From positions 1-32,091 of the IMG/VR virus record IMGVR_UViG_2609459797_000004: a stretch of DNA of 32,091 nt; one strand, 5' to 3'. Position 1 is the stretch's first letter, and every line of letters begins with the position of its first letter. The translations under genes were made by a program, and so were the position numbers. Below, in pieces: positions 540 through 24,024 of the stretch. The notes beneath the pieces were generated by a model. The model was not told where the DNA came from, did no database searches, and worked only from the letters and a program-made list of their open reading frames with translations. The stretch comes from a virus. Lineage: Duplodnaviria > Heunggongvirae > Uroviricota > Caudoviricetes.

Positions 540-2708
540 TTATTGTTGCCCTGCTTGTTGCTCTGTGGGCAAAGAATCGTTATTACTGAGAAAAGCGACA
601 ATACCAACGCGGGCTAGATTTTTCTTCTCGTCCGCTGATAGCGTATTTACCCAATCCCTATATGGTTTCACTTTCTGCATTGAAGCATCCACCGATTTCC
701 TAGAGGCTGGGGTGCTGGCGTGACCTGCGGCAATCCTTTTTGAGAGATTTTTAAAAGCCGGAGATGCTATTAATTCATCAGCGGCAGCCATTCTTGAGTT
801 TTTACCAGAACGGAGGAGGCTAAAGAGTCCCCCTGCCGTACCGGCTCCAGGCGCTCCGATGGCTGTGGTTAGCCCTTCTGCTTTAGCCACGTCTTTTCCT
901 ATTCCATATATACGCCCAAGCATTCCCTTTTCTCCTGCGAACTGATTCATCATCCGGTCAATTTGAGAGGAGGAATACACCTTCTCGCTGCCCACCCTTT
1001 GCATGCCAGAAGCCACCTCATAGATGTTTCTCAACCTACGCGTAGCCGGATAGCCAATTGCCCGGCTCAATGCCTGCATATTTGATTTGTTTCTTGATAG
1101 CCCTCCATACCACTTAACAAATCCAGGAACACCAAGTGACTGCCCGGGAGATTTAGCGAACGTAGTGAAAGCCCTATTCATTGCGGTGGCAACAGCTGGT
1201 TGCACCATGTCATCAGGAAGATTTGAAACTAGGCGACGGAAGTCACCGCCCTTTCCTTGAGACATATCGACGATAGCTTGCTGTAATTGCGGCACTATTC
1301 CTTTATCCAAGTCTCTGCCAAGATTTTGAACAGCGGCTGCCTGTACTGCGAATCTCTTTCTCCCGATCTCTCTAGCTAAATTCCATGTATCCTCTGCACC
1401 ATATTTGGCAGCAGCGGCTCCCTGATCTTGTATCAGTGCGCTTTCAATAATTCCAAGGTGCCGAGCGTCGATGCCGCTATATGGCCCTTTATCCATCTCT
1501 TTGCCAAGAGCCCTTCCAACCTGCCGTCGAACTGCATCAAGAAGACCATAAGTCGGGGCGGTGTTTGGGTCTATTTGTTCCAAGGTCTTTGACAGTTGAG
1601 GATATAGCGATTTTAGTTTTTCTAGCCCACCGACATCATCTGCAATATCCTCAATGGCGTTAGTGGTATGGGTGGTATCTACGGTAGCTCTTGTTGGAAT
1701 TTTTGCTCTAATTTGATTGTATAGAGTGTCTTCTTGGCGCTTCAGGTTTGATCTTAACTCCTCATAAGAGCTTTTTACCTTTTGATTGATAAAGTCCTTA
1801 TCAACACTCCCACCAAAATCATTAATAAATTTATCTGCCTGCTCTCCAAGCCTACTAATGGCCTCTCGCTGTGCGTGGAACAGTTTATTCCCTGGGGTTG
1901 CAGCTAAAGCATTTTCAAACGCGCGGTAAGAAGGGTTTCTGGAGTACATGCCGGGAGTTAAGGCATCCTCCATCCCAAGATTGCGGGCGGCCTGTAGCAC
2001 AGAATCATCTGGTGAAACGGCTTTCGCGAGAGCATTTAAACCAGATCTGTTTCCTGTTATTGGATTCACATCTGTAGCTTTCGTTGCAACCCTCGCCATT
2101 CCACTAAGTTCAGATGCCTGAGACATTTCTGCCGATGGAGGCCTAAACCTCTTCGTAACCGCACTGGCTGCTTTACTAATCACTGGAGATGCCAATTCAG
2201 CAATTGGACCAGCGGCAGCACCTATAGCCGCCCCTGTAGTTACATTGCCACCGGTTCCGTTAGCAACAACACCACCTTCAACCGCACCAAGCCCTGCGGC
2301 GGCAGCCAGCCTTGCCGCCCCTTTCGGAACCTGAGAAATAATCCCACCACCACTAACAAATGGCGCTGCTTGTCCAACAAACTCACCAACATCTTGTGCG
2401 GTTGATGGTTTTGCCGCTAACTTCTGCTGTAGAGACTGAATTGCGGCTTGCTCTTCTGGTGTCATATCCTGAAACAGGCCAACACCTTTACCAACATCCA
2501 TCAATCCACTGAGAACGCCATACATAAAACGGTCGAAACCGTTAGCATTATTAACAACATTTTCCTGTCTGGAATTTTCCTCTGGTGAAACCAAAGGAGA
2601 TTGCTGCTGTTCTGGTTGGGAATCAAGCACAAAGCCATCAGGAAGTTGTGAGTTATCAGGCTGTTCATCCAGAACAAACCCCTCTGGTAAACCTACATTG
2701 GTTGCCAT
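540..2708 (-). CDS. Internal virion/ejection protein, P22 gp16-like (722 aa)
   Basis: Last and largest of three consecutive ejection-protein-sized ORFs downstream of the tail needle, with a Gly/Ala-rich central segment. Assigned by size and position in the P22-like gene order; homology not verified. Confidence 0.55.
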
Positions 2709-4042
2709 TGTCCGTTCCTGTAAATAATTTTCTGACCAGTTTTAGGATTTTTCGCGGTCATACCTTCTCGAAATGTTTGACCGCCAGATGTTGCTTGTTG
2801 TGTCTGTTGTTGCGCAGGCTGCTGAATATCTTCATACAGCTTGGCTTTTCTGGATTGCAATTGCTTAGTTAGTCCGCTGGGGAGAGAATCTCCATAAGTT
2901 GAAAGATAATCATCCATTTGCTGGTTAAACTTTTCGCCTTCAGTATTTGCCATCAGTTTTGAGGTGTTGATTAAGTCTTGGACTTGCTCATTATTCAGCA
3001 TCTTGCCGTTAGATAATTGGCTAACATAGTTACCAAGTGTGCCAAATATTCCATCAGTGCGTTTTACCTGCACTTGCTCACCTTCGCGTACCACAGATTG
3101 CGGATCCAGCGATTTCATATAGTTGAAAATCATTCCCAACTGCGCGGCTGGAGTGTTGCGCTTCCCAAGGGCTTGTAGGTTGTCAGAAGCACTGCGCATT
3201 GCAGAATAATTCTTTGAGAACCCATTAATATCACTATTCAGATCTCGAACAAGTTTTGGGTCAATCTTTCCGCTTTCCTGTTGTTTCATCCCTAATTCCT
3301 GCAACTTCAGGGCTACGTTATCATTATGCATTTGTGCCCGCTGAGCCCTGTCTAGTTGAGCGTTTTGGATATTTGCCCATCCTCTCGCGTTCTCCATGTC
3401 AGCCTGACGGATGCTTTCATCCAATCGCCCCTTCTCAAGTTGGCGACCAACCATCTTATCCTGATAATCCAGCATTTTATCCGGACCAACAGCCCCTAGC
3501 GTCATAGTAGTCAGCATGTGTGATAGCTGCTCTGGATTCTGAATACCTGTCTGAATCATCCAGTCAGCATTCGCCCCCACGCGATTTAACCTGTCCTTGT
3601 TGTCAGTAATGAATTTACTGTAGGCTTCCGGTCCCTGAGAAAGAGCGACGTTAGCCCTCATGGCTAAATCGCCCATATCGTTGCGTTGCTGATCATTAAG
3701 ACCGGAAAACGCCTGTTGTGCCTGTGCAACAAACGCTGGATTTTCCTGGGCAAACTTAAATAGTCCAGATGGATCACCAGAAGCCCATGCATCAGCGTGA
3801 ACCTTATTGAACGCACTAATAGCTTTCTGTTGCTGTTCCTGATTGTAAATATCAGCAACTCCAGCCAGACCACGTAACGCGGTCAGGCCAACGTTATTTG
3901 CACCTGAGCGAGCCAGTTCATTGTTTTCGCGGATCAGACCAAGCGTTGCGTTAATGTCGCTTGCCTTTGGTGCATTCTCATTTTGCGTACCAATGCCAGC
4001 CAGAAAACCACCAGAATTAATACCCTGTTGCCACGTAGCCAT
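2693..4042 (-). CDS. Ejection protein, P22 gp20-like (449 aa)
   Basis: Position between the gp7-like and gp16-like ORFs; Q/N-rich protein of the expected size. Confidence 0.5.
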
Positions 4043-18619: not shown

Positions 18620-19026
18620 TCGTACCTCCTGTCGGTAAATCTGACACCCTGACCAATAGCCCAGGCTGTTGTGTACTCGATCAGACTTGCCATACGCTTC
18701 ACGCTCATCTGCGCGCTGCTTTCGCGAATGTTGACGTATTCGCCTTCAAGGCCGGGCAAAACATCAGCTTCCTGCTTTGTAGCCACTGCATGACCGCTTA
18801 TCAACAAAACCTTCCATTGTTCCGGTTTTAACCATTTTCCGCACCATTGAACCTGACGTGCGATATCCGCCAGCATCGCGTGAAATTTTGCGTTCTGGTC
18901 AAGGTTGCGCTTGTAGTCAGTAATGCGGATGGTAACTGGCTTGTCTTTATCGAGAGGAGTTGCGAGGATGGCGTTGATTGCGGCTTGCTGTTGTTGCTTA
19001 GTTCGGAGGAATATTGTTTGCTTCAC
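18616..19026 (-). CDS. ninB: NinB (Orf-family recombination mediator, 136 aa)
   Basis: Central region [24 protein letters not shown] parallels lambda NinB DQNRKLWACLGDVSRQVEWHGRWL; GTG start with AAGGAG ribosome-binding site. Confidence 0.75.
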
Positions 19027-19037
19027 TGAACACTCCT

Positions 19038-19229
19038 TTATTTTTTATGCCTGTAACCCCATTCTTCCAGCAACCTTGCGGCGTACCACCCAAGAAACAA
19101 AGGAAAGAACATTACAATGAGATATTCCCCGCCACGGTCAATGTTCGAAATTGACCAGATTACGATGTAACCAGTGCAGGACAGGAATATTACAAACCCC
19201 AAAAAGCTACTTCGTCGACTCATGCTCAC
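19038..19229 (-). CDS. Small membrane protein (63 aa)
   Basis: Two hydrophobic segments; overlaps the upstream ORF's stop. Confidence 0.35.
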   Translation of the reverse strand: MSMSRRSSFLGFVIFLSCTGYIVIWSISNIDRGGEYLIVMFFPLFLGWYAARLLEEWGYRHKK

Positions 19230-19546
19230 TCCTTCACTTTGATTCCAGCGGCGCAGATAGCCTCTACATCGCTTTCGTATTGCGATTCTGCACCTGAGTC
19301 ATAGCCAATGTGATAATCACCGGGAAGTGGGCCTTTCTTTGGCTTTTGCAGCTCAATCTCGATAGCTGCTCGCGATGCCTGCCATAAAGTCCACCACTCA
19401 TTTAAGGAGTGACGAATATCCATGCTTGAAAATGCGAAGTACCTATCACCATTTCTTGCCTCGGTTATCATCTCGAATGGTAATTTCAATTTTTTGGCAA
19501 CGTATTCCTCAAACTTCTTTCTTGATTCGTCCATATCACTCTCCAT
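19226..19546 (-). CDS. Hypothetical protein (106 aa)
   Basis: ORF with good codon periodicity in the nin region. Confidence 0.4.
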   Translation of the reverse strand: MESDMDESRKKFEEYVAKKLKLPFEMITEARNGDRYFAFSSMDIRHSLNEWWTLWQASRAAIEIELQKPKKGPLPGDYHIGYDSGAESQYESDVEAICAAGIKVKE

Positions 19547-19561
19547 CGATGATTTTTTGGG

Positions 19562-19744
19562 TTACCAATAATATTTGATAGTCGCCATAATTATCGGTAG
19601 CAACGCGCAGACGACTGAAAACCGTAAAACAAAACCTACCCCCAATATGCGATATGCATTATCCCAGAGAACAAAACTCATCATCAGAAGGAATCCATGA
19701 AAAATCGCGACAAGAAATAAACTACAAATAAATGCATTTACCAT
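19562..19744 (-). CDS. Small hydrophobic protein (60 aa)
   Basis: Almost entirely hydrophobic; first ORF after the post-helicase terminator. Confidence 0.3.
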   Translation of the reverse strand: MVNAFICSLFLVAIFHGFLLMMSFVLWDNAYRILGVGFVLRFSVVCALLPIIMATIKYYW

Positions 19745-19770
19745 CGGTACTTACCCCTCGCTCTTAATCC

Positions 19771-19800
19771 AATAAAAAAGGGCTACTGTGTAAATAGCCC
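19771..19800 (-). terminator. Intrinsic terminator downstream of the helicase gene (tR2-like position)
   Basis: Minus strand GGGCTA-TTTACACAG-TAGCCC hairpin followed by TTTTTTATT, about 28 nt after the helicase stop. Confidence 0.5.
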
Positions 19801-19827
19801 CTGTTATTAGCTCAGTGATGTAGATGG

Positions 19828-21204
19828 TCATACGTCCGCCCCTTGTGCATATCGTCTGCCACGCGCAGCAGGTGCATTTGATGCTGTGCAAATCTGTCTG
19901 GCTTCATCCTGGTCACATGCAACAAAGTGTCCGTTGCAGAACCGCTGGTAAACCGTACCAAGTGAGCCAAAACGGTTTTTCGTCACGATGATTTCAGCAA
20001 ATGGCGCGGCGCTACTGTTCTCGTCATATACCGCTTCCCGATAGAGCATGATGATTGAGTCTGCGTCCTGTTCAATGCTTCCTGAATCACGCAAATCTGC
20101 GTTTGTCGGGCGTTTGTTTGGTCGCTTCTCAACATCGCGCGAAAGCTGACTCAGGGAGATAACAGGCGTTTTCAGGTCTTTCGCCATCGCCTTCAGGCTT
20201 CCGGAGATGTGAGCAATTGCGAGGTCGTTGCGATCTGCTTTCGGCTTCTCAATCAGGCCAAGATAATCCGCCATGATGAGTGACAGGTTTGGATTTTCCT
20301 GTTTGTGCCGTTCTGCGATTGAGCGTATTTCTTCGACCGATAACCGCGAGGCATCGACTACCCATACATCCAAATCTGCAAGCTGACTCATGCCGTTAGC
20401 AACACGCGCCCAGCCTTCGTCATCCATCGATGCAGGATTTCGCAGTACGCTAACCGACATCCTCCCGGCGTTGGCAATGCTTCGCTCTGCAATCTGCAAT
20501 GCGCTCATTTCCATCGAGAAAATCAATACCCCGCGCCGGACGTCAGAACCAGGAATAACGCGGCTTGCAACGCCTTCGGCAATCTTCAGAGCCAGTTCGG
20601 TTTTCCCCATACCAGGACGAGCAGCGATTATCACCAGGTCTTCCGCGTTCATCCCTCCGGTGATGGCATCAAGTTCTTCGATTCCGGTCTTCAGGGTATC
20701 TGACTCTTCTCCGTTCCTCAGACGCCTGTCAAGCGTGTCAGTGTAGTCGGTGATGATTTCCCCTAACCGTACCGGTTTAACCTCGTCACGGGGCTTTCTG
20801 ATGGCTGAAAGACGCTTTACAAGCTCATCCATCGCCTGACTCGATGCGTCGATGGTTCCGCTCTGAATTGGTTCACGCATTTCATCCATGATTTCCAGCA
20901 CCAGACGGCGGTGATAGTTATCCGCGACCATTCCGGCATATCCCTTCAGGTTTGCGGCACTCGGGCAGTTTTTGCTGGTCATCAGGATTGACGTGAAATG
21001 CTCCTCTCCGCACGCCTCGGCAACCATCAGCGCGTCGATTAGGTTTCTGTTTCTCGCCTGCTTGCGGATAACCTCGAAGGCTTTCCGGTAGAGCGGAATT
21101 GAAAACGCTTCCGGCTCCAGCGTTGCCAGAACGTCGCTGGCGGTTGGTGTTAATCCACCAATCAGCAGGCCACCGATAACGCTCGCTTCGATATCCTGTC
21201 TCAT
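19828..21204 (-). CDS. Replicative DNA helicase, DnaB family (P22 gene 12-like, 458 aa)
   Basis: Walker [10 protein letters not shown], plus DnaB-type motifs [12 protein letters not shown] and [21 protein letters not shown]. Confidence 0.85.
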
Positions 21205-22022
21205 GCAATCCCCCTGTCTGCAAACTTCCCTTCCCGTACTCCAGTTAACGAATCTTCCCTCAGCAGGTAATCAAAATCAGCTGTCCAGCCCGTGTCGTTG
21301 TCTCCGAAGTAAAACGGCTTGGCCTGATGCACAAACGCCCTGACATACGCTCTGAAACCGTCCACGTTTGGCGTTTTCAGTTGCGGGATGATTTTCTTCA
21401 GGCGGCGTTTGCGTTTCTCGTTGACCGCAACAGCGTGTGGCAGTCTGTCACCGACTTCGGTGTTGTAGGCGTTCAGGAAGGATTCGTAGTCGATTCGTTC
21501 TGCCTTGCGACGTTCAGGTTTAACCTGCCCATCACCGCCCCCGTTAGGGGGTAAGGGGGTATTTGTATTTATTGTCTTTTGTATATTGTCTTTTGTGTTT
21601 AGCTGACTTGGCTTATACCCATTAGCCGACTTGGCTAATGTTTTATTAGCTGTTTTAGCTAATGTTAAGCTGTCCTGGCTAATCCACTGAGAAACCACCT
21701 TGTTCACTCCGATTTTCACGCCATCAGCAATGAGGAATTTACGCTCGATAAGCTGGCGCTTGGCAGCGCAAACATGAGTGTGATGAATACCTGTCATGGC
21801 TGCTATCTGCGTGTTTGTGAGTCGATCCATCGGCTTATTGAATCCGTATGTCTTGCGCATGATAGCGAGCATCACCTTCAACTGCCGGACGGTTAAATCA
21901 GCCATCAGCAGACTGTCGGTAATCTCGTTAGCAACGCGCATGAAACCATCTTCGGTATCTGCCACGCGATGCTCCACGACCTCCAGTTGAGGCCTGTAAT
22001 CAGCTAACTTAACGACGCCCAT
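21201..22022 (-). CDS. Replication initiator, lambda O-like N-terminal domain (273 aa)
   Basis: [36 protein letters not shown] parallels the lambda O N-terminal DNA-binding domain; contains an internal iteron/AT-rich block; stop overlaps the helicase start. Confidence 0.7.
21561..21683 (-). repeat. Candidate replication origin inside the O-like gene: AT-rich block plus four iterons
   Basis: Direct repeat ATTGTCTTTTGT at 21571..21582 and 21585..21596; 16-bp iteron variants AGC(T/C)G(A/T)(C/T)(T/C)T(G/A)GCTAAT at 21601, 21624, 21648 and 21668. Confidence 0.5.
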
Positions 22023-22170
22023 GTTTCACTCCTGCTTTGGCTAGTCTGTAAACACCAACAAGGCGCTCTGCGAACGCCCTGTTATTTGCTGCGGCTACCA
22101 CTAATCCCTCAGGTGAATCAGGGTGTCGAATCTCTTCTTTTTCCTGGTATTTCTTACGACGTTTTGTCAT
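22009..22170 (-). CDS. Small hypothetical ORF (53 aa) between cII and the O-like gene
   Basis: Not in the track (below 60 aa); GGAG ribosome-binding site 6 nt upstream of the ATG; very basic N-terminus (MTKRRKKYQEK); 3' end overlaps the O start. Confidence 0.3.
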   Translation of the reverse strand: MTKRRKKYQEKEEIRHPDSPEGLVVAAANNRAFAERLVGVYRLAKAGVKHGRR

Positions 22171-22202
22171 AATTACTCCTGTGGATTGATCCAGTAATTC
22201 CC

Positions 22203-22499
22203 TCAGAATTGCATATCAATTTGCTCAGAATCCTCGGTGGCAGCCGGGGATTTTTTCTTTGTGATTCCATCCAATGCATACTTAAAAGCCCTGCTAATCG
22301 GACTGATGTCTGATGCCATTCCGAAAGCACACAAGACCGAAGCAATAAATCTCCAGTCCGTTCTGCTTATCTTCGATTCATGACAGCCAATCATCTTTGC
22401 CAGACCGCGCTGGGTAAGCGTTGACAGGTTGATGAGTAAATCAGTTTCAGCGCGATCAATTTCTCGCTGTGTTGGCTTGCTATAACTTGCTTGTGTCAT
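22203..22499 (-). CDS. cII: CII-like transcriptional activator (98 aa)
   Basis: C-terminus KKKSPAATEDSEQIDMQF matches lambda CII C-terminus KKRPAATERSEQIQMEF; same size and position after cro/nutR. Confidence 0.7.
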   Translation of the reverse strand: MTQASYSKPTQREIDRAETDLLINLSTLTQRGLAKMIGCHESKISRTDWRFIASVLCAFGMASDISPISRAFKYALDGITKKKSPAATEDSEQIDMQF

Positions 22500-22536
22500 T
22501 TGTTAATTTTCCAATAGTGAATAGTTAGTTGAAAGG

Positions 22537-22629
22537 TATGCGTGGAAACGCATATGGCCTTAGTTGGTCAGATATCTTGGGGCTCGCTTTGTCAGCGACG
22601 TAGGACGAATGTCCATTGTGAAAAGAGCG
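22537..22629 (-). promoter_or_regulatory. nutR-like region: boxA-like CGCTCTTTT, boxB-like hairpin and tR1-position hairpin
   Basis: Minus-strand CGCTCTTTT (22621..22629), hairpin TCGCT-GACAA-AGCGA (22584..22598) and hairpin TATGCGT-TTCC-ACGCATA (22537..22554), all between cro and cII. Confidence 0.45.
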
Positions 22630-22636
22630 GTGTTAC

Positions 22637-22837
22637 TTATGCAGTTGTTTTTTTGTTACTTGGGAAGGGCTTTATTTCTTCCGCATAAACGCTTCCATCA
22701 GCGTTTATAGTTAAAAAAATCTTTCGGCCTGCATGAATGGCCTTGTTAATCGCGCTTTGATATACGCCGAGATCTTTAGCCGTCTTGGTTTGCCCAAAGC
22801 GTATTGCATAATCTTTCAGGGTTATGCGTTGTTCCAT
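22637..22837 (-). CDS. cro: Cro repressor, lambda type (66 aa)
   Basis: [66 protein letters not shown] differs from remembered lambda Cro at two positions. Confidence 0.92.
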
Positions 22838-22863
22838 ACAACCTCCTTAGTACAGGCAACCAT

Positions 22864-22927
22864 TATCACCGCTAGAGGTAAAATAGTCAACACGCACGGT
22901 GTTAGAAGTTTATCCCTTGCGGTGATA
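22864..22927. promoter_or_regulatory. Right operator OR1-OR2-OR3 with divergent PR/PRM, lambda type
   Basis: Three 17-bp sites: TATCACCGCTAGAGGTA (OR1), CAACACGCACGGTGTTA (OR2), TATCCCTTGCGGTGATA (OR3); lie between the cro and cI starts. Confidence 0.8.
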
Positions 22928-22934
22928 GATTTAA

Positions 22935-23651
<717 letters not shown>

Positions 23652-23682
23652 TTGTTTTATTTTTCACGTAATAGGATGATTT

Positions 23683-24024
23683 ATGACACAATTTCAACTT
23701 GCATTAATCGCTAGAGAAGTTGATGGAGAAGTCATCCATCTTCGCACCAAAGACGGATACATCAATGCCACCGCGATGTGCAAGTCTGCGGGGAAGCTAC
23801 TTGCTGACTATACACGACTAAAAACAACACAAGATTTTTTTGATGAATTATCACGCGATATGGGGATTCCCATATCGGAGTTAATTCAATCATTTAAAGG
23901 CGGAAGAGCAGAGAATCAAGGGACTTGGGTTCATCCAGACATCGCAATTAATTTAGCTCAGTGGCTATCTCCAAAATTTGCAGTGCAAGTATCGAGATGG
24001 GTGCGTGAGTGGATGTCAGGTTAA
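23683..24024 (+). CDS. KilA-N (APSES-like) domain protein, 113 aa, at the rex position
   Basis: AGGATGA ribosome-binding site; signature GYINATAMCKSAGK...DYTRLKTTQDF...GTWVHPDIAINLAQWLSPKF typical of KilA-N domains; co-oriented with cI. Confidence 0.7.
   Translation: MTQFQLALIAREVDGEVIHLRTKDGYINATAMCKSAGKLLADYTRLKTTQDFFDELSRDMGIPISELIQSFKGGRAENQGTWVHPDIAINLAQWLSPKFAVQVSRWVREWMSG

Follow-up and report, generated by a model that had tools for sequence, protein, structure and literature searches.

A probable HK97-type replication origin within the initiator gene of a P22-like phage genome

A probable origin of HK97 type inside an O-like gene

The stretch of DNA considered here (IMG/VR record IMGVR_UViG_2609459797_000004, positions 1 to 32,091; Caudoviricetes), which is referred to as the window over its full 32,091 nucleotides (nt), represents a P22-like (Sf6/HK620-type) phage genome, and very probably carries at positions 21538-21683 the replication origin of an HK97-type lambdoid module, situated within the gene of its own initiator. 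This gene, a minus-strand open reading frame (ORF; 22022..21201), encodes an O-like protein with a Phage_rep_O domain (PF04492) at amino acids (aa) 19-113 (E = 5.8e-33; 113.7 bits against a cut-off of 28.7), the N-terminal domain expected of lambdoid initiators with an origin inside O. Segment 21538-21700 (163 nt) is 100 % identical to the DNA of phages HK97 and HK446, while the complete initiator gene shares 98.7-99.1 % nucleotide identity with HK97 O (gp54), its counterparts in HK446, mEp213, Nil2 and the Stx phages 1717 and 2851, and gene 18 of ST104 (megablast). The encoded N-terminal domain is 99-100 % identical to those of the HK97-type loci, and both the repeated origin sites (iterons) and the N-terminal domain of the window are those of HK97 gp54. 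An earlier note on this DNA had observed that the iteron sequence differs from that of lambda and had proposed a different initiator specificity. The first point is correct (TTAGCC as opposed to TCCCTC) and extends to P22 (TTTACC). The second stands in so far as the specificity is predicted to be distinct from the lambda and P22 types, but not as a new one, as the HK97 origin is identical; the origin is already known in kind and in sequence.

The same origin could be distinguished in 398-441 of 5426 complete Escherichia coli genomes (about 7-8 %), where the gene is annotated only as 'replication protein'. HK97 has been listed as a distinct predicted replication specificity, with the ST104 protein 98 % identical to that of HK97 (PMC2629481). 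No origin feature is annotated in the HK97 and ST104 records, and the HK97 iteron sequence was not found in print by a full-text string search, which did not cover the original HK97 and P22 sequence papers. The coordinates 21538-21683 thus give the origin at base level for a widespread module that databases leave unannotated, and which is also present in many Stx-converting and P22-like phages whose records say only 'replication protein'.

The iteron array

Four 16-mer repeats were located by a repeat finder (21601-21616, 21624-21639, 21648-21663 and 21668-21683), with start-to-start distances of 23, 24 and 20 nt. Each forms the core of a 19-base-pair (bp) dyad-symmetric site, the best being ATTAGCC-GACTT-GGCTAAT at 21621-39, and the four site cores (TTAGCC-N5-GGCTAA) span 21599-21682. 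When the 32-kilobase (kb) window was searched for TTAGCCN5GGCTAA with up to two mismatches, six matches were found, four of which fall within 84 bp. By comparison, 1000 dinucleotide-preserving shuffles contained a mean of 0.97 matches, with three or more sites in 100 bp in none of them (0/1000), and the same search (up to two mismatches) revealed no second iteron cluster elsewhere in the 32-kb window. The four repeats of the earlier note, spaced at ~20-24 bp, are where it had placed them, and it was likewise right in locating both the repeats and the AT-rich block within the coding sequence of the initiator.

Read along the coding strand, the sites start at gene nt 341, 361, 385 and 408, giving four ~19-bp iterons spaced at 20, 24 and 23 nt, in frames 1, 0, 0 and 2; the same pattern of frames occurs in lambda, P22 and the other three-frame types examined. 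These frames bear on the proposal that the repeats are a side effect of a peptide repeat in the protein linker (LAKTANK / LAKSANG) and serve no function as DNA. Iterons 2 and 3 do share a frame and encode the similar hexapeptides LAKTAN and LAKSAN, but iteron 1 (ISQDSL) and iteron 4 (YKPSQLN) each lie in a frame of their own. Furthermore, every site incorporates an internal palindrome, which no peptide repeat needs, lambda and P22 keep the 20/24/23 spacing although their peptides are wholly different, and changes in the half-site go together with changes in a distant region of the protein. No repeated peptide could give rise to one nucleotide repeat read in three different frames, so it is the DNA that is under selection. 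The peptide-repeat explanation, contradicted by the frame analysis, was rejected with a probability close to nil.

The iterons are encoded by aa 113-142 and the AT-rich block by aa 141-154. With aa 113 as the last residue of the Pfam domain and ~aa 179 as the first of the modelled C-terminal domain, the origin as a whole lies in the coding sequence of its initiator, between the N- and C-terminal domains. The iteron-encoded segment has the lowest confidence in the structure model (predicted local distance difference test, pLDDT, below 50 for aa 108-175) and is the most variable part of the protein among relatives, which fits a tolerant interdomain linker. Because such a linker tolerates variation, a cis-acting site can be accommodated within the coding sequence.

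One further perfect copy of the iteron consensus, TTAGCCCTCATGGCTAA, occurs at 3651-3667, 18 kb from the origin, in a gene 20-like injection-protein gene (2693..4042, minus strand). Of 4000 shuffles, only 7 had a perfect site at any point of the window. HK620, ST104 and UPF_BP1, the last of which has a P22-type origin, carry the palindrome too, as does P22 with one mismatch. It tracks gene 20 and not the replication type, and was rejected as a second O-binding site, being probably coincidental.

Iteron types and the initiator N-terminal domain among relatives

A scan of viral contigs provided 80 loci (the best 120 proteins/80 loci of ~1600 homologs) with protein identities from 100 % down to 48 %, of which three contained frameshifted or truncated genes and 77 were analysed. 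Dyad-symmetric sites are present at the same position of O in 77/77 of these, which favours the earlier note, whose own proviso was that its reading would fall if the repeats were unconserved in related O genes. The layout is nearly constant across the related loci, while the half-site varies. Six half-sites could be distinguished: TTAGCC (HK97, the window and loci L043, L044, L050, L055, L056, L063, L065 and L067, the N-terminal domains of which are only ~60 % identical to that of the window), TTTACC (P22), GTTACC (L059, L060 and L066), GTCACC (L068-70, L074 and L081-84), TTAGCR…TGCTAA (L076-78) and TCCCTC (lambda). The GTTACC type has a spacing variant of 20/24/24/17. Six iterons are found in L077 and L078 (gene nt ~370-515; spacing 24, 24, 24, 33 and 23), recalling the six-iteron origins of lambda-type Stx phages (PMC7466680). 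In L039 the N-terminal domain contains an internal duplication of 24 residues, giving a 297-aa protein, with the iterons unchanged.

When the domains of 50 distinct proteins were compared, N-terminal domain identity was at least 58 % within an iteron type (median 93 %), against a median of 49 % between types (maximum 76 %). The C-terminal domain does not sort in this manner, with identities as low as 37 % within a type (median 87 %) and up to 100 % between types. On these comparisons, the half-site type follows the initiator N-terminal domain and not the C-terminal domain, in accordance with the clustering that the earlier note had proposed as a check. This co-variation indirectly supports both the binding of the iterons by the initiator and the start of replication at this site. 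From the iteron type it can further be predicted which prophages within one host might compete for, or cross-activate, one another's initiators.

Exchange between the two halves of the gene is evident in several chimeras. Loci L045 and L049-54 combine a P22-type N-terminal domain and iterons with a C-terminal domain 98-100 % identical to that of the window, while the Stx phages H46-53 match only aa 144-273 of the window initiator. One of these Stx phages, TL-2011a (L085, 943-3387), encodes a different O N-terminal domain and incorporates its own AT-rich stretch and approximately seven short direct CCGCACATGA repeats, with no dyad-symmetric iterons, and joins the window-type C-terminal domain sequence exactly at the C5/G5 block described below. 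The DnaB-type helicase of TL-2011a carries a LAGLIDADG / homing-endonuclease (intein-like) insert. The first ~20 codons of the initiator gene are common to different iteron types, for example L045 (P22 type) and L043, which suggests that the gene has a second recombination joint, at its 5' end.

The AT-rich block and the G+C-rich inverted repeat

Directly downstream of the last iteron lies a strand-asymmetric AT-rich block, which begins with CACAAAAGA, a start common to lambda, and has a coding-strand composition of A27 C6 G2 T5 over 21561-21600 (40 nt). By nearest-neighbour energies, no duplex in the gene is less stable; among non-overlapping windows of 30 or 40 bp across all 32 kb it ranks fourth in instability, and it falls in the top 0.1 % of positions. 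The AT-rich block with a tandem repeat in the earlier note stands as to its composition (20.5 % guanine plus cytosine, G+C) and the twofold occurrence of the unit ATTGTCTTTTGT (21571-82 and 21585-96), but the two copies are 2 nt apart, with a period of 14, and hence not strictly head to tail; the coding strand presents them as two ACAAAAGACAAT at a 14-nt period. Types in which the block has otherwise diverged retain the CACAAAAGA start, the low stability, the A-rich coding strand and the repeated CAAAAGA unit. A role as the DNA-unwinding element of the origin would be in keeping with these features.

Beyond this block, a G+C-rich inverted repeat (CCCCC-N4-GGGGG, or C5/G5), absent from the features listed in the earlier note, extends the origin ~22 bp further to the left and coincides with the right-hand limit of the annotated P22 origin. 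A perfect hairpin of at least 5 bp, 40-46 nt after the anchor, was found in 27/34 distinct relatives, against 156/843 control segments with any such hairpin. At this offset L065 and L080 have another palindrome, GTCATC-N4-GATGAC, which points to a constraint at the level of the DNA, beyond the encoded Pro/Gly codons.

The C5/G5 element is also the junction at which N-terminal domain/iteron cassettes are joined to different C-terminal domains (TL-2011a), and it might be argued that the AT-rich and C5/G5 block is a recombination joint only, kept identical by recent exchange, with the origin elsewhere or the palindromes bound by another protein. A block of ~60 nt is indeed identical, base for base, in P22 and the window type, between flanks that are about 60-70 % identical, and the breakpoints of the chimeras (L045 and L049-54, the Stx phages H46-53 and TL-2011a) fall at this block. 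However, a joint and an origin are compatible, and lambda has its proven origin in just this arrangement (PMC7466680). The low stability, A-rich bias and CACAAAAGA start persist where the block sequence has diverged, the iterons co-vary with the DNA-binding domain of the initiator and with no neighbouring gene tested, and the window contains no other iteron cluster. A joint without origin function is accordingly considered very unlikely.

The palindromes could also act as RNA or single-stranded DNA hairpins, whether as a terminator or attenuator antisense to O, a regulatory RNA or a target of host defence, instead of as duplex sites for a protein. A single-stranded DNA fold of the origin greatly exceeds its shuffles in stability (z = -5.3); iterons 2 and 3 and the C5/G5 repeat form hairpins in it, with the AT-rich block unpaired. 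A terminator-like pattern is present on the plus strand at 21620-21640. In addition, the P2 OLD protein is reported to bind the lambda origin iteron region, with iteron hairpins proposed as the trigger (preprint 10.64898/2026.07.10.737580). The terminator pattern, however, fits only one of the four sites, namely the perfect palindrome followed by Ts; a scan of the origin for promoters and terminators gave this palindrome of iteron 3 as its sole match, and Rfam returned no family at E <= 1 across 19000-24000. A hairpin needs complementarity only, yet the four sites of one phage have a single half-site, which changes with the predicted helix 3 of the initiator, and hairpins formed after melting would be compatible with, and secondary to, origin function. 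The RNA-hairpin explanation was rejected on these grounds and is regarded as extremely improbable. No DnaA box was found in or beside the origin, the counts being at chance level and the nearest candidate (21063-21071) having one mismatch.

Domains of the initiator and a candidate specificity motif

Within the predicted origin-binding domain, aa 69-88 are nearly invariant in all TTAGCC-type initiators, even in those ~60 % identical overall, and differ in each other type. The motif at aa 79-83 changes with the half-site: IHHTH accompanies TTAGCC, MAPTK TTTACC, ISRPK GTTACC, LPRQK GTCACC, KHHTH TTAGCR and LPVKR TCCCTC. Both of the HHTH-bearing types have the TTAGC core in common. In the AlphaFold2 model, HHTH (aa 80-83) is located at the start of a helix (81-93) that is third in a helix-helix-helix-hairpin pattern (helices 45-59, 70-77 and 81-93; strands 97-100 and 103-106, forming a hairpin at 97-106), the order of a winged helix. 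Modelling on the single sequence was unusable (mean pLDDT 38), and an alignment of 56 sequences, all at least 70 % identical, raised the mean to 52.7, with values of 49-73 in 10-residue blocks over aa 41-100. The best Foldseek match had E = 0.06, with none at or below 0.001 against the PDB, the top weak matches being mostly winged-helix proteins of the MarR/CRP type; a sequence search of the PDB with the initiator gave no match at E <= 1. Together, the alignment and the model suggest that aa 69-88 may determine specificity, with aa 79-83 positioned on a putative recognition helix.

The C-terminal half was modelled as a helical domain at aa 179-264. Among all pairs of relatives, the identity of the adjacent helicase correlates with that of the O C-terminal domain (rho 0.68) and hardly with that of the N-terminal domain (rho 0.09). 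This correlation would fit recruitment of the helicase by the C-terminal domain.

Proposed mode of action and weight of the evidence

Taken as an origin, the element would be expected, by homology with ori and O of lambda, to operate at 21538-21683 in the following manner. Dimers of the initiator N-terminal domain would bind the four dyad-symmetric TTAGCC-N5-GGCTAA sites and form a bent nucleoprotein complex, the strain of which could melt the adjoining A-rich 39-bp block. The C-terminal domain may then deliver the phage DnaB-type helicase, the gene for which lies immediately downstream, to the opened DNA, with the host primase and polymerase taking over last.

Several points weigh against this interpretation. 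The origin is known here from sequence alone, and the P22 annotation to which it is compared itself carries no more than the remark 'similar to phage lambda'. With a mean pLDDT of 52.7, the structure model is weak, and it has no significant fold match, which leaves the winged-helix and recognition-helix assignments provisional. The N-terminal domain identities overlap slightly between and within types (within-type minimum 58 %, between-type maximum 76 %), and the sequences compared are linked by descent and recombination, so that the counts of co-variation do not represent independent events. Physical linkage alone might account for the correlation of the helicase with the C-terminal domain. 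This correlation is also loose: the P22 helicase is 91 % identical to that of the window, the P22 C-terminal domain only 61 %.

A wider proposal can be put forward only tentatively, as it is thought somewhat more likely to fail than to hold. Origins of the O family may represent one rigid scaffold, made up of four dyad sites spaced at 20/24/23 nt, the distance of 18 nt to CACAAAAGA and, ~45 nt beyond that, the G+C inverted repeat. It would hold at least six or seven interchangeable specificity cassettes, the type-constant helix-3 motifs of which, four to five residues long, possibly form a readable and re-engineerable recognition code. The C5-N4-G5 element may combine a functional role in the origin, so far unrecognised, with that of a preferred crossover point at which origin specificity and helicase recruitment are reassorted. 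The position of the origin also marks DNA that origin-sensing defence systems might detect.

The replication module and its gene context

The features of the module are collected in Table 1. The helicase gene is located downstream of O and overlaps its stop codon by 4 nt; its homologues include HK97 P (gp55) and P22 gene 12, and it is the counterpart of 'Eru2B', as the initiator is of 'Eru2A' (PMC8044961). The module is of the HK97/P22 type, with an initiator and its own DnaB-type helicase, as opposed to the O-P pair of lambda.

Table 1. Features of the replication module in the window, listed in the direction of the initiator gene
Feature	Position	Strand	Basis or remark
O-like replication initiator gene, 273 aa	21201..22022	-	ORF, Pfam Phage_rep_O, megablast, HK97 annotation
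N-terminal origin-binding domain (predicted), aa 19-113	21684..21968	-	Pfam; AlphaFold2
Proposed specificity segment, aa 69-88	21759..21818	-	N-terminal domain alignment, invariant columns
Iteron 1 (first in gene direction), coding strand ATTAGCCAGGACAGCTTAA	21665..21683		frame 1, ISQDSL
Iteron 2, ATTAGCTAAAACAGCTAAT	21645..21663		frame 0, LAKTAN
Iteron 3, ATTAGCCAAGTCGGCTAAT, perfect 7+5+7 palindrome	21621..21639		frame 0, LAKSAN
Iteron 4, ATAAGCCAAGTCAGCTAAA, abuts AT-rich block	21598..21616		frame 2, YKPSQLN
AT-rich block (39 bp), proposed DNA-unwinding element	21560..21598		20.5 % G+C against 49 % for the gene
G+C-rich element, CCCCC-GTTA-GGGGG (21538-21551) and second GGGGG (21555-21559)	21538..21559		P22 rep_origin boundary, hairpin scan
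C-terminal domain, aa ~166-273, proposed helicase recruiter	21204..21527	-	domain exchange; helicase correlation
DnaB-type replicative helicase gene, 458 aa	19828..21204	-	Pfam DnaB_C (E = 1e-77), DnaB (E = 5e-13)

On the 5' side of the initiator gene are a small ORF, a CII-family gene and lambda-like cro and cI genes. The latter correspond to ORFs of 66 aa and 237 aa at 22637-23651, arranged as a cro/cI pair, whose products we presume to be nearly identical to lambda Cro and CI. If so, the genome would be a three-way mosaic of P22-like virion genes, lambda-type immunity and an HK97-type replication module. At 22227-22254 on the plus strand, antisense to where the CII-family gene ends, there is a strong terminator-like hairpin of 12 pairs with a T-run behind them. 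Its position is that of the oop terminator annotated in P22, and it had no Rfam family match in the scan of 19000-24000.

Comparison with known replication origins

The closest system is that of HK97, which has the same origin sequence followed by the same DnaB-type helicase gene and shows no substantive differences; what sets the window apart is that its module is part of a P22-like genome of the Sf6/HK620 type, the cI and cro genes of which are lambda-like. The Eru2 modules of Stx phages (Eru2A, 273 aa; Eru2B, 458 aa; PMC8044961) agree with the window in protein length and domain content, and the Stx phages with this initiator gene share ~98.7 % identity with the window gene. Eru2 has been classed as non-lambdoid, with no mention of iterons, an AT-rich tract or an origin (PMC8044961). 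By the present sequence comparison, the Eru2 origin is built exactly like that of lambda.

In P22 (RefSeq NC_002371), a rep_origin is annotated at 32840-32984 in gene 18, and by alignment extends from the first iteron to the end of CCCCC-N4-GGGGG, corresponding to 21538-21682 of the window. The two phages share the gene family, the helicase partner, the extent of the origin and the 20/24/23/18 spacing, as well as the identical AT-rich and C-rich block described above. They differ in the iterons (TTTACC-N5-GGTAAA in P22) and in the protein, P22 gp18 being 50 % identical overall (N-terminal domain 43 %; C-terminal domain 61 %); where the window has IHHTH, at the start of helix 3, P22 has MAPTK. 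The window thus has neither the TTTACC iterons nor the gp18-type N-terminal domain of the P22 type, and the two origins are predicted to differ in specificity. P22 gene 18 has been reported to contain four ~20-bp repeats unlike those of lambda, with related initiators binding differing iterons in their own genes (PMC8022706).

The lambda-style arrangement recognised in the earlier note is confirmed in detail. The annotated lambda iterons (39034, 39054, 39078 and 39101) have the start spacing of the window (20, 24 and 23), and in lambda, P22 and the window alike the last site starts 18 nt before CACAAAAGA, with equal reading frames. Because spacing, distance and frames are equal in the three phages, the arrangement is homologous and not merely analogous. 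Lambda also has its origin between the two initiator domains, with four ~19-bp dyad sites and a Phage_rep_O N-terminal domain; in the lambda model, iterons and an AT-rich tract in mid-O support formation of the O-some, with unwinding at the AT tract (PMC7466680). In contrast, its half-site is TCCCTC (TCCCTC-N5-GAGGGA) and its N-terminal domain is 43 % identical to that of the window, which accordingly has neither the iterons nor the lambda O-type N-terminal domain of lambda specificity. The lambda O C-terminal domain is unrelated (33 % identity over only 21 aligned residues, amounting to no real similarity), and lambda has no perfect hairpin of at least 5 bp at the position of C5/G5. Lambda O works with P, a recruiter of host DnaB, whereas the partner in the window is a phage-encoded DnaB-type helicase.

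The iteron origins of plasmids such as pSC101, R6K and RK2 similarly place repeated initiator sites beside an AT-rich unwinding element, but are located outside the initiator gene, employ unrelated Rep proteins and direct rather than dyad-symmetric repeats, and are usually dependent on DnaA. The established lambda model is left unchanged by the present comparison and is modestly extended, in that the layout of the origin is invariant while specificity is exchanged together with a short protein motif.

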